Shown one piece after another: positions 3,469 through 63,286 of a stretch of 64,000 nucleotides of DNA. Below the pieces are notes generated by a model. The model made no database searches and was not told where the DNA came from. It worked only from the letters and a program-made list of their open reading frames with translations. The stretch lies in assembly GCF_002854065.1 (NCBI RefSeq), contig NZ_CP024147.1; one strand, given 5' to 3'. This stretch comes from Escherichia coli. Lineage in GTDB: Bacteria > Pseudomonadota > Gammaproteobacteria > Enterobacterales > Enterobacteriaceae. The position numbers and the translations under genes are program-made. Numbering within the stretch: position 1 is the first letter of the stretch; every line of letters begins with the position of its first letter.

Positions 3469-3632
3469 GCCTTATCTCCACCTCTTCGCGTCATTACGCG
3501 ATATTCATTAAAGTGGCGAAAGCATGCAGCAATCACAAAAAAATGAAAATAACAAAAAGAGAAAACACTTTTGCCATTTTGCTAACAAACAGGAAGGAGA
3601 TGCGAGGGAGAACGCGCTCCCTCGAGAGGAAA

Positions 3633-3722
3633 TCAGTGCAGCGCGGCAGTCAAACCCACGGCTACGATCAAACCGAGGACGATAATCGTTGTTACCAGTG
3701 AAAATTTAAGGTCGGTGCTCAT
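3633..3722 (-). CDS. ynhF: 29-aa single-helix small membrane protein
   Basis: Hand translation of the minus strand: ATG (complement 3720-3722) ... MSTDLKFSLVTTIIVLGLIVAVGLTAALH, stop at 3633-3635; AAGGAG Shine-Dalgarno 8 nt upstream. Too short for the ORF track. Confidence 0.7.
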   Translation of the reverse strand: MSTDLKFSLVTTIIVLGLIVAVGLTAALH

Positions 3723-3960
3723 CAAGTTTTCTCCTTTTTTATTACCACACAAAAAGTGATATTACGCATTTTTACACACTGTGATGAAAAAATCTCCCGT
3801 CATTTATAATGATAAGTGTTTTTACCACTTCCCCTTTTCGTCAAGATCGGCCAAAATTCCACGCTTACACTATTTGCGTACTGGCCATTGACCCCTTCCT
3901 GACGCTCCGTGTCGTTTTTCCGGCGTACCGCAACACTTTTGTTGTGCGTAAGGTGTGTAA

Positions 3961-3976
3961 AGGCAAACGTTTACCT
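3961..3976. promoter_or_regulatory. PurR operator O1 (PUR box) in the purR leader
   Basis: AGGCAAACGTTTACCT fits the PUR-box consensus ACGCAAACGTTTTCNT; 45 bp upstream of the purR start. Confidence 0.7.
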
Positions 3977-4020
3977 TGCGATTTTGCAGGAGCTGAAGTT
4001 AGGGTCTGGAGTGAAATGGA

Positions 4021-12611: not shown

Positions 12612-12688
12612 GCGTTCATAGCTCAGTTGGTTAGAGCACCACCTTGACATGGTGGGGGTCGTTGGTTCGAGTCCAATTGAACGCACCA
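12612..12688 (+). tRNA. valV: tRNA-Val (anticodon GAC)
   Basis: 77-nt cloverleaf: acceptor GCGTTCA/TGAACGC, D-arm GCTCAGTTGGTTAGAGC, anticodon loop CTTGACATGG, T-arm GGTTCGAGTCC, 3' CCA. Confidence 0.95.
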
Positions 12689-12692
12689 TCCT

Positions 12693-12769
12693 GCGTCCGT
12701 AGCTCAGTTGGTTAGAGCACCACCTTGACATGGTGGGGGTCGGTGGTTCGAGTCCACTCGGACGCACCA
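12693..12769 (+). tRNA. valW: tRNA-Val (anticodon GAC), second copy
   Basis: 77-nt cloverleaf identical in core to valV but with acceptor stem GCGTCCG/CGGACGC; 4-nt spacer between the copies. Confidence 0.95.
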
Positions 12770-12800
12770 GATTTTCTTAATCTGGTCTTCTCCTTTTTCC
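12766..12800 (+). terminator. Intrinsic terminator after valW
   Basis: Stem ACCAGAT / ATCTGGT followed by CTTCTCCTTTTTCCC. Confidence 0.6.
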
Positions 12801-12876
12801 CTCTGCTTCTTCTCTGTATCCAATACGTTAAAAGATTTACACTGTCTTCGTATGCGTTATCAGAAGGAGAATCGCT

Positions 12877-13182
12877 ATGGCAACTTTGTTACAACTTCAT
12901 TTTGCTTTTAATGGCCCATTTGGCGACGCAATGGCTGAGCAGCTTAAACCACTTGCTGAGTCGATTAATCAGGAACCTGGTTTTCTGTGGAAGGTATGGA
13001 CAGAAAGTGAAAAGAACCACGAAGCCGGCGGGATCTACCTTTTCACTGATGAAAAAAGCGCCCTTGCCTATCTGGAAAAACACACTGCCCGACTGAAAAA
13101 TCTCGGCGTTGAGGAAGTTGTCGCCAAAGTTTTCGATGTCAATGAGCCACTGAGTCAAATCAATCAGGCAAAACTCGCCTGA
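12877..13182 (+). CDS. ydhR: Small conserved protein of unknown function
   Basis: 101-aa ORF with RBS GAAGGAG 6 nt before the ATG; position after the tRNA-Val pair. Confidence 0.8.
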
Positions 13183-30970: not shown

Positions 30971-31339
30971 CTATACCCCAAAGCTTTCGCCACAGCCACA
31001 TTCATTCTGGGCTTTAGGGTTGTGAAATTTGAATATCTGATTAAGTCCTTCACGAACGAAATCGACTTCCGTGCCATCAATAAACGGCATCGCTTGCAGC
31101 GGGACAAACAGCTTCGCGCCGTCGTGTTCAAACAGCAGATCGTCTTTGTCCGGCTCGCTAACACTGTCGAGCACATAGCCAAAGCCCGCGCAGCCCGTTT
31201 GCTTCACACCTAAGCGCACGCCGACCATACCTGGCTGCTTTGCCACCAGCTCGCGGATGTGGACAGCGGCTGCGGGTGTCAGCGTTAAGCCTTGCCAGGC
31301 GAAATCCTGTGGATTAAAGGTTCCTGAATGCATGTCCAT
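30971..31339 (-). CDS. sufA: Fe-S cluster A-type carrier SufA
   Basis: 122-aa ORF with C-terminal CGCGESF motif; first gene of the sufABCDSE operon. Confidence 0.93.
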
Positions 31340-31383
31340 CGATTTACCTCACTTCATCGCTTTCAGCGTATAACAGCATGTTA

Positions 31384-31402
31384 GTGATAATGATTATCAG
31401 TT
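31384..31402. promoter_or_regulatory. Fur box in the suf promoter
   Basis: GTGATAATGATTATCAGTT matches the Fur consensus GATAATGATAATCATTATC; about 45-60 bp upstream of the sufA start. Confidence 0.65.
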
Positions 31403-31516
31403 CAACCCAGCAAACGCAGGGGCTTTACCGTAAAACATGCTTTTTGCCTGCTTTTAATAAGCATAGACCCTGATGTGTGGGTTAACAGGCACGCTAAGAA
31501 TTAGGTATCTCATTGT

Positions 31517-31536
31517 TAGATAATGATTATTATCTA
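31517..31536. promoter_or_regulatory. Second Fur-box-like inverted repeat in the distal suf control region
   Basis: TAGATAATGATTATTATCTA: 7-bp arms TAGATAA / TTATCTA around GATAAT-like hexamers, about 180-200 bp upstream of sufA. Confidence 0.35.
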
Positions 31537-31621
31537 AGGAGCATTAAGGCTGTGATGAAAAAGAAAAAGTTGTATTGAAAATGACTATTTAAGAGATAGG
31601 TAAAAAAGTGCAGCGTTCAGA

Positions 31622-31690
31622 AATAAGAAAACCCTTAAGTCTGTGCGACACAGGCTTAAGGGTTTCTACCCCATCCGGCGCTTATCTCCG
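31622..31690 (-). ncRNA. rydB: Probable small RNA RydB
   Basis: Minus-strand 17-bp hairpin (31629-31665, one A-C mismatch) followed by UUUUCUUAUUU, at the sufA-ydiH position where RydB is annotated in K-12; the 5' end is estimated. Confidence 0.4.
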
Positions 31691-31887
31691 GCACTCTCAG
31701 TGGCTTAGCTCTTGAAGGGGCGATAAGAATAATCTCATAAAGCTAACCCGCCGTTTTAACACAAACTGCGATTAGTATTATTTTTGAACAATATCAGGCG
31801 GGTAGATAAGCAGTATTAAGAAGGTCATCGAACCTGGACGGAGGTTAATCCAGGTCGATTTGGCGAACTTGCGGCATTAAGTCAGGA

Positions 31888-32076
31888 TCAATGCACGCCC
31901 AGACGCCAGGCAAAGTAGATTTCTTCTTTTAATTCAGCAGAAGAGAGAGTAAGCAGGTCAGCAAATTCAAGTTCTAGTTGTTTCAGACGTTTAAGATATT
32001 GGGCAGGTGAAAGATTGCTCTGGTCACGGCGTAAAAATTCAATGGCCAGCTGGGTGGGATCAAGTTGAGTAGACAT
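31888..32076 (-). CDS. ydiH: Small protein of unknown function
   Basis: 62 aa from MSTQLDPTQLAIEFLRRDQSNLSPAQYLKRL... with AGGA RBS; the ORF-track extension to 32157 lacks an RBS. Confidence 0.7.
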   Translation of the reverse strand: MSTQLDPTQLAIEFLRRDQSNLSPAQYLKRLKQLELEFADLLTLSSAELKEEIYFAWRLGVH

Positions 32077-32175
32077 AGCATCCTCGCTTTTAGACAAGAC
32101 CTGCACAGTATACCACCGTTTACTGTGCAGATAATGACCAAAAGCAATATGCGTCACACTTTTCTGGTGACAACG

Positions 32176-32586
32176 TCACAAAATGGCGGTCGTCAATCGT
32201 GACGAACAGCACAAACGCCCTTTCTCATCGAAGATTTCAATCTGCCAGACCTGGTGACGCGAACCGAGATGCAACGGTTTGCATACGCCGCGCACCCGCC
32301 CTTCTCGTGCCGAGCGGACATGGTTAGCATTGATTTCCAGACCAACCACTTTTTGCTCACCTTCGGTACATAAATAACCGGCAACGGAACCGATACTTTC
32401 GGCCAGTACCACGGATGCACCTCCATGTAGCAACCCGAAAAGCTGCTTTGTCCGCGAGTCTACTGGCATTGTCGCTTCAAGGGTGTCATCACCAATATGT
32501 TCAAAGCGAATATCCAGTAACCCCACCATGTTTCCTTCACCCATGGCATTCAGTGCTTCCAGGGTGATTTTTCGTTTCCATATCAT
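32176..32586 (-). CDS. menI: Hotdog-fold 1,4-dihydroxy-2-naphthoyl-CoA thioesterase
   Basis: 136-aa ORF with PaaI/YdiI-type motif HGGASVVLAESIGS. Confidence 0.85.
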   Translation of the reverse strand: MIWKRKITLEALNAMGEGNMVGLLDIRFEHIGDDTLEATMPVDSRTKQLFGLLHGGASVVLAESIGSVAGYLCTEGEQKVVGLEINANHVRSAREGRVRGVCKPLHLGSRHQVWQIEIFDEKGRLCCSSRLTTAIL

Positions 32587-37325: not shown

Positions 37326-37430
37326 ACGGTTATAAATCAACATATTGATTTATAAGCATGGAAATCCCCTGAGTGAAACAACGAATTGCTGTGTGTAGTC
37401 TTTGCCCATCTCCCACGATGGGCTTTTTTT
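37326..37430 (+). ncRNA. rprA: RprA small regulatory RNA
   Basis: Sequence ACGGTTATAAATCAACATATTGATTTATAAGCATGGAAATCCCCTGAGTGAAACAACGAATTGCTGTGTGTAGTCTTTGCCCATCTCCCACGATGGGCTTTTTTT matches RprA as I recall it, including the terminator hairpin and U-tail. Confidence 0.88.
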
Positions 37431-37568
37431 TAACATTTTTCCGCTTCGCTACCTCGCCCCTCACTCTTTCCAATAATGTTGCACAAGATACTGTGACTCT
37501 CTTCAAGCCGTCAGCAGGCTGATAATGTTATTTATATTTTATTGTTTATTTCATGCAGCCATTACACG

Positions 37569-62886: not shown

Positions 62887-62945
62887 GGTATCCGTTCTGC
62901 TGAAGTGTCATGGCGTTGATTTTACGGTGACTCTTCGACAGTGAA

Positions 62946-62975
62946 AAGAAAAAAGGCCGCAGAGCGGCCTTTTTA
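62946..62975. terminator. Bidirectional intrinsic terminator downstream of ihfA
   Basis: Stem GGCCGC / GCGGCC flanked by an A-run upstream and T-run downstream. Confidence 0.6.
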
Positions 62976-62986
62976 GTTAGATCAGA

Positions 62987-63286
62987 TTACTCGTCTTTGG
63001 GCGAAGCGTTTTCGACCCGGCTTTTTAACTTCTGCCCGGGTCTGAAGGTCACCACGCGCCGTGCTGTAATGGGAATATCCTCGCCCGTTTTCGGGTTACG
63101 TCCCGGGCGTTGATTCTTATCACGCAGATCGAAGTTACCAAAACCAGAGAGTTTCACCTGTTCGCCGTTTTCCAGAGCGCGACGGATCTCTTCGAAAAAC
63201 AGTTCAACCAGTTCTTTGGCATCCCGCTTGCTAAGCCCAAGCTTATCAAACAGATATTCTGACATTTCAGCTTTTGTAAGCGCCAT
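62987..63286 (-). CDS. ihfA: Integration host factor alpha subunit
   Basis: 99-aa [55 protein letters not shown]... Confidence 0.97.

Follow-up and report, generated by a model that had tools for sequence, protein, structure and literature searches.

A long hairpin followed by a U-rich tract lies on the minus strand between sufA and ydiH in the stretch of Escherichia coli DNA analysed here (64,000 nucleotides, hereafter the window), where the small RNA RydB is annotated in K-12. The locus raises the question of whether this hairpin is the 3' end of RydB, a terminator that the finished RNA no longer carries, or a structure with another role. The reading that we favor, with a probability of roughly 70%, is that it is the Rho-independent terminator of rydB and is cut off the mature RNA.

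The hairpin and the RydB core

The features discussed below are the following:

31629..31665, minus strand: long hairpin (direct reading, inverted-repeat search and folding; conservation and covariation across 24 species; present once per E. coli genome)
31621..31631, minus strand: U-rich tract UUUUCUUAUUU (direct reading), where the primary transcript would be released
31661, minus strand: predominant 3' end of RydB in vivo (Term-seq of Adams et al., 2021; supplementary file 1 of PMC7815308)
31661..31721, minus strand: RydB RNA, a 61-nt match to Rfam RF00118 (81.6 bits, E = 9e-18, full model 1-61)
31666..31733, minus strand: rydB (b4430), the 68-nt K-12 MG1655 annotation (1764713-1764780) mapped onto the window
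31675..31691, minus strand: P3 stem-loop of RydB, the small hairpin CCGGAGAUAAGCGCCGG (Rfam alignment)
31729..31737, minus strand: putative extended -10 element of rydB, TGAGATTAT (direct reading and conservation)
31339-30971: sufA (list of open reading frames)

Two hairpins, one small and one long, are present in the minus-strand sequence, which reads, in order, GCCGGAGAUAAGCGCCGG AUGGGG UAG AAACCCUUAAGCCUGUG UCG CACAGACUUAAGGGUUU UCUUAUUUC. The long hairpin is made of a 5' arm AAACCCUUAAGCCUGUG (31665-31649), a UCG loop (31648-31646) and a 3' arm CACAGACUUAAGGGUUU (31645-31629), all on the minus strand, and the inverted-repeat search delimited identical arms of 17 nt, 94% complementary and separated by 3 nt. 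Its stem had been described in the first-pass annotation as one of 17 bp; the 17-nt arms are there, and they form 16 Watson-Crick pairs around one C31654·A31640 mismatch, with a G31666·U31628 pair that could lengthen the stem. The tail UUUUCUUAUUU of that description is also present, with the correction that its first three U belong to the 3' arm, where they can pair with the AAA at the stem base, and that the minus-strand sequence beyond the arm is UCUUAUUUC (31628-31620). Likewise the small hairpin CCGGAGAUAAGCGCCGG occupies 31691-31675, so that the end coordinate formerly given for it (31690) drops its first C. The 51-nt segment of the long hairpin folds at -22.0 kcal/mol, compared with -7.6 +/- 2.6 kcal/mol for 200 dinucleotide shuffles (z = -5.66; 0/200 as good), and only ~3 inverted repeats in the window, this one included, combine a length of 15 nt or more with a short loop and a complementarity of 90% or more. 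Across 4978 E. coli genomes the median number of copies is 1 and the highest 2, and among 121 loci the hairpin was found only beside the RydB core.

The 241 nucleotides aligned to K-12 MG1655 (31560-31800; window coordinate = NC_000913.3 coordinate - 1733047) are identical to it, and the alignment to the Rfam RydB model that had been called for as a check gives 81.6 bits, compared with a gathering score of 50 bits. The proposed RydB position, between sufA and ydiH on the minus strand, is therefore correct by the model match, by sequence and by synteny. In the Rfam model P1 (CCCC/GGGG) pairs 31720-31717 with 31672-31669, the base of P2 (GCU/AGU) pairs 31709-31707 with 31695-31693, and P3 is CCGGAG-AUAAG-CGCCGG, written in upper case (highly conserved) in the Rfam consensus; an 8-nt tail UAGAAACC after P1 completes the match to 31661. 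RNAalifold applied to 35 diverse family members recovers P1, P2 and P3, the same helices as Rfam, with compensatory changes in all 5 predicted P1 pairs (including an added G31721·U31668), and the distal part of P2, which varies in length, also covaries. The long hairpin begins 3 nt past P1 and lies outside the K-12 rydB coordinates, and the Rfam model overlaps ~5 nt of it; RydB (RF00118, b4430) is thus the K-12 RNA in locus, strand and sequence, whereas the hairpin, bar these ~5 nt, belongs to its 3' flank or precursor. The span drawn in the first-pass annotation (31622-31690) contains P3, the 3' strand of P1 and the hairpin but only the 3' third of RydB (the Rfam match covers only 31661-31690 of it), and its guessed 5' end has to be moved, since the core and the 5' end lie upstream, the latter at ~31721 according to Rfam and promoter conservation.

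The start of rydB appears to be marked by the putative extended -10 element TGAGATTAT. A TGnGAtnAT block upstream of the RydB core is conserved from Escherichia to Pantoea, and a comparison of 103 distinct upstream regions shows a -10-like nAnnnT peak whose end is 7 nt upstream of the first G of P1. These patterns place the probable transcription start at ~31721, in agreement with Rfam, in which case the K-12 annotated 5' end (31733) would fall inside the -10 element. The Cappable-seq supplements contain no match to a rydB start in either coordinate system.

The coordinates of rydB differ between resources: 68 nt in K-12, 61 nt in Rfam and Term-seq, and 105 nt in Salmonella LT2 (Sittka 2008, PMC2515195). 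The Salmonella length corresponds to core, hairpin and U-tract together, which in E. coli (31721 to 31621) amount to 101 nt. rydB has also been listed with a Rho-independent terminator by RepRanger (PMC12306157). Existing annotations or catalogues already include both the gene and the terminator beside it, and the present case is a sighting of a known locus. The PGAP annotation of the E. coli RefSeq genomes (H1-H35) has no feature over rydB or the hairpin; only the K-12 MG1655 record annotates rydB.

Probable termination at the hairpin and the 3' end of RydB

The anatomy of the long hairpin is that of a Rho-independent terminator, with a stable stem followed directly by the U-rich UUUUCUUAUUU. 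A d'Aubenton-Carafa-type discriminant, calculated for the CCC…GGG stem with the tail UUUUCUUAUUUCUGA, gives +12.8 for the minus strand and -42.7 for the plus strand. The minus-strand terminator anatomy that had been proposed for this site thus stands on the stem of -22 kcal/mol, the U-rich tail and a discriminant that is positive on that strand only, and a bidirectional terminator was rejected on the plus-strand tail CTACCCC and its negative score. A simple consensus terminator scan of 31200-32200 made no call at the hairpin, which it probably missed because no stem mismatch was allowed; no other terminator-like site was found between ydiH and sufA. The length of the stem and its A/U-rich base count against the terminator reading, and the U-tract is broken, with only 4 consecutive U, three of which are able to pair with the A-tract.

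At the level of the family, 74 of the 102 RydB-family loci with enough flank carry a hairpin of -13 kcal/mol or better together with a T-run, which makes a terminator directly after the core a family-wide feature; the T-run starts 31-88 nt (median 46) past P3, and in sequence these terminators bear no relation to the E. coli hairpin. Like the Rho-independent terminators of enterobacterial sRNA genes, the rydB hairpin is a stable stem-loop with a U-rich run, strand-specific, placed right after a short RNA gene and maintained by compensatory changes. Unlike them, it has an unusually long stem (17-18 positions) with an A/U-rich base, an internal mismatch and an interrupted U-run, and it is missing from the accumulating RNA, for which it therefore cannot act as an Hfq-binding 3' module of the kind typical of base-pairing sRNAs.

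The position at which RydB ends in vivo was taken from published Term-seq data, in which the 3' end at MG1655 1764708 (-) is classed as "primary, rydB" (Adams et al., 2021, PMC7815308). It is supported by 2.17 and 4.14 million reads on two sheets, among at least 3 rydB entries, a level comparable to the tRNA aspV peak (PMC7815308). Nowhere in 1764600-1764699, a range that takes in the U-tract, do the same tables list a 3' end. RydB therefore ends …GGGGUAGAAACC-3', 8 nt past P1 and 5 nt into the 5' arm, exactly at the end of the Rfam model, and the annotated K-12 3' end is 5 nt short of it. The accumulating RydB is a 61-nt RNA without the long hairpin. RydB was reportedly ~60 nt long in the Northern blots of Wassarman et al. 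in 2001, which matches this RNA. The implied reading that the hairpin forms the 3' end of RydB has consequently to be given up: with the dominant end at 31661 and the hairpin outside the annotated and mature RNA, it can be at most the terminator of a precursor and not the 3' end of the accumulating sRNA. If the hairpin terminates transcription, it must be removed afterwards; that the tables show no 3' end in the U-tract speaks against termination there unless the precursor is assumed to be short-lived.

From these data we infer that termination occurs at the U-tract and that the 3' end of RydB arises by processing of a longer transcript. RNA polymerase would start at ~G31721 from the extended -10 promoter TGAGATTAT, transcribe the 53-nt three-helix RydB core and then the hairpin, and be released in the U-rich tract at ~31625-31621, giving a primary transcript of ~100 nt. 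The same hairpin would also stop read-through from ydiH, keeping transcription out of the suf promoter region just downstream. By itself the hairpin is of little consequence; its behavior, including the insulation of the suf promoter, would be that of an ordinary terminator. After termination the hairpin would be removed in E. coli so that the abundant RNA ends at C31661, and two routes of removal can be proposed. In one of them the cut would fall within the stem, as in an RNase III-type staggered cut with the C-G pairs 31662/31632 and 31661/31633 between the two sites. In the other an endonuclease would cut first, and a 3' exonuclease would then trim the end until halted by the compact core. 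A 3' exonuclease halted at a stable helix would leave an overhang such as 8 nt.

The site of the RydB 3' end has U at +2 and +3 and partly fits the RNase E uridine ruler (Chao 2017), but it is located in a stem. Regarding published cleavage data, rydB is not mentioned in the text of Altuvia 2018 (PMC6212723), rydB, sufA and ydiH are all missing from the supplementary text of Gordon 2017, the supplements of the p19 study have rydB only in an expression table with no cleavage site, and the RNase E map of Chao 2017 contains no RydB.

Two further pairings were considered and set aside. One joins the RydB 5' segment CCUUCAAG to CUUAAGGG in the 3' arm of the hairpin, and by a rough estimate ~2-3 such 7-of-8 matches are expected by chance. 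The other appears in the minimum-free-energy fold of a 116-nt precursor, where the P3 loop GAGAUAAG (31688-31681) pairs with the U-tract CUUAUUUC (31627-31620); it is probably a chance pairing because it is not conserved in Salmonella or in most Citrobacter tails.

Conservation of the hairpin and alternative roles

Conservation was examined with the P3 sequence as an exact search string in one genome per species, which yielded ~106 RydB-like cores, all in Enterobacterales; P3 being the search string, its constancy in these 106 copies is uninformative on conservation. About 15 further matches to the string are chance occurrences in coding DNA of other phyla. The same hairpin follows the RydB core in 24 species of Escherichia, Citrobacter, Salmonella, Silvania and Leclercia. 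When these are aligned over 18 pairs, 94% of the cells are paired and 6 pairs have changed on both sides (for example U-A to C-G, C-G to U-A and G-C to A-U); the covariation score was reached by 0/500 shuffles, and in a control with slid 3' partners the pairing falls to 21-65%. Half of the 24 species have no pair at the mismatch position, and the other half have U-A, G-C or A-U there. The lower stem (GRAACCCUUAAG / CUUAAGGGUUUU) is nearly invariant in sequence across the five genera and the GGG-UUUU junction is invariant in the 24 species, whereas the loop, the upper stem and the DNA past the T-run diverge. Core and hairpin also behave as a unit: in S. diarizonae and C. braakii ~2 kb of extra DNA separates the two from sufA, and in Citrobacter werkmanii and Citrobacter sp. 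FP75 ~2 kb separates them from ydiH.

In four suf-linked loci (L102 of C. koseri, L013 and L066 of Citrobacter spp. and L064 of Pseudenterobacter) the AACCCUUAAG hairpin is replaced by a different hairpin of 14-19 bp, followed in 3/4 of them by a poor U-tract. That Citrobacter koseri and two further Citrobacter species have another long hairpin here, with a poor U-tract, hints that a long stem may have been kept rather than termination as such.

This last observation bears on the main alternative, itself unlikely, in which the hairpin would serve mainly in processing, such as by being an RNase III substrate that sets the RydB 3' end, with termination weak or incidental and the polymerase often continuing. 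Such a role would account for a dominant 3' end within the stem, for the sequence conservation of the lower stem in five genera beyond what pairing demands, and for the other 14-19-bp stems without a good U-tract in C. koseri and Citrobacter sp. R56 and Awk4; a 2-nt staggered cut, with two C-G pairs between the sites, would also fit the in vivo RNase III rule (Altuvia et al., 2018, PMC6212723). On the other hand, the stem has just 3-4 bp beneath the putative cut, compared with the ~22 bp normally spanned by RNase III, the invariant GGG-UUUU junction is what would be expected of a terminator, and the cut site also agrees in part with the uridine ruler of RNase E (U at +2 and +3; Chao 2017). The absence of rydB, sufA and ydiH from the supplementary text of Gordon 2017, and of rydB from all but the expression table of the p19 study, also argues against it. 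It is quite unlikely that the hairpin is instead kept as the functional 3' end of a classical base-pairing RydB of ~100 nt with a terminator stem and a U-tail. The 105-nt length tabulated for Salmonella (PMC2515195) and the general knowledge that most enterobacterial sRNAs end at their terminator would agree with a retained hairpin, but Term-seq puts the end at 31661 and lists none in the U-tract, the 68-nt K-12 gene and the 61-nt Rfam match both finish ahead of the stem or at its very beginning, no more than 4 U follow one another in the U-tail, and RydB is enriched only 2.5-fold in Hfq co-immunoprecipitation (PMC2515195) and is listed as Hfq-independent (PMC3933206).

A riboswitch-like arrangement, with the RydB core as leader and the hairpin as expression platform controlling read-through into sufABCDSE, appears very unlikely. 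It would explain why a terminator stands after a covarying three-helix core with highly conserved joining regions, both oriented like sufA, and some paralogues without a detectable terminator do lie 50-250 nt upstream of genes for OsmC, a PrpA-like phosphatase and an MscS-type channel. Nevertheless, no alternative (antiterminator) pairing is evident, sufA is preceded by a 282-nt spacer with Fur-box-like sequences in which the suf operon has its own promoter, S. diarizonae and C. braakii carry ~2 kb of inserted DNA between the hairpin and sufA, a short RNA accumulates at tRNA-like levels, and the OsmC-linked copies have a sigma-S-like -10 (GCGTCTATACTTA) between the core and the ATG. Finally, the notion that the hairpin is a chance palindrome or a dispersed repeat of the REP/BIME type is hardly credible; it is a near-perfect intergenic inverted repeat of the sort that RepRanger-type tools pick up, yet the copy number (median 1 in the 4978 E. 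coli genomes) is not that of a many-copy REP/BIME element, and its occurrence only beside the RydB core in the 121 loci, its folding z-score of -5.66 and its covariation in 24 species speak against both. The terminator of a processed rydB precursor remains the preferred reading.

The nature of RydB and the surrounding DNA

A tentative and rather doubtful proposal is that RydB is a very abundant, 3'-processed, Hfq-independent structured RNA, perhaps protein- or ligand-binding and not a classical base-pairing sRNA, and that the lower stem is a dedicated maturation signal, beyond its part in the terminator, that sets the 3' end 8 nt past P1. RNase P M1 RNA is a stable RNA made from a precursor whose terminator is removed. 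RydB resembles it in being abundant and highly structured and in having its mature 3' end upstream of a terminator hairpin, and differs from it in that the RydB precursor and its processing pathway are putative. The 3' module of Hfq-type sRNAs was not found in RydB: the mature end at 31661 precedes the stem, there are only 4 consecutive U and the Hfq enrichment is weak. That the accumulating RNA is without terminator stem and U-tail argues against giving RydB the standard treatment of Hfq-dependent sRNAs in target prediction. An effect on rpoS is the sole function reported for RydB in the literature consulted, and it has no known targets or transcription factors (PMC11230228). In Salmonella it is among the most strongly ppGpp-repressed sRNAs, together with SsrA and SsrS (PMC3963941).

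The ~106 places in Enterobacterales at which the RydB core occurs (loci within L002-L121, for example L027, L035, L042, L034, L099, L032, L056 and L083) often include 2-3 paralogues per genome, and ~28 copies have no detectable terminator. Copies outside the suf locus recur upstream of genes for a PrpA-like metallophosphatase in Pantoea, Erwinia and Atlantibacter (the Atlantibacter copy is beside SraC/RyeA-SdsR), OsmC in Rouxiella and Serratia, an MscS-type channel in Mangrovibacter and a LysR regulator in Pantoea and Erwinia. Of 15 divergent copies scanned, 14 reach the Rfam gathering score (the exception is L006), which indicates that the breadth of the family is already captured by Rfam.

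In the immediate neighborhood, the product of ydiH was confirmed as YdiH by Pfam PF15930, and menI is also among the neighbors. Between menI and ydiH, at 32086-32145, there is an imperfect inverted repeat of 28 nt with 79% complementarity and a 4-nt spacer. The suf genes are iron-regulated, and two Fur-box-like palindromes, GATAATAATCATTATC and GATAATCATTATC, at 31534-31519 and 31398-31386 (-) between the hairpin and sufA, fit this regulation; a promoter-like site at 31556-31529 overlaps the first of them (31534-31519). Elsewhere in the window, other Rfam matches at 3630-4020 (-), 37326-37433 (+), 62887-63045 (-), 12612-12766 (+) and 12731-12893 (-) correspond to STnc550, RprA, STnc540, two tRNAs and "HPnc0260 antisense RNA", the last of which overlaps the second tRNA with its 3' end, on the opposite strand.
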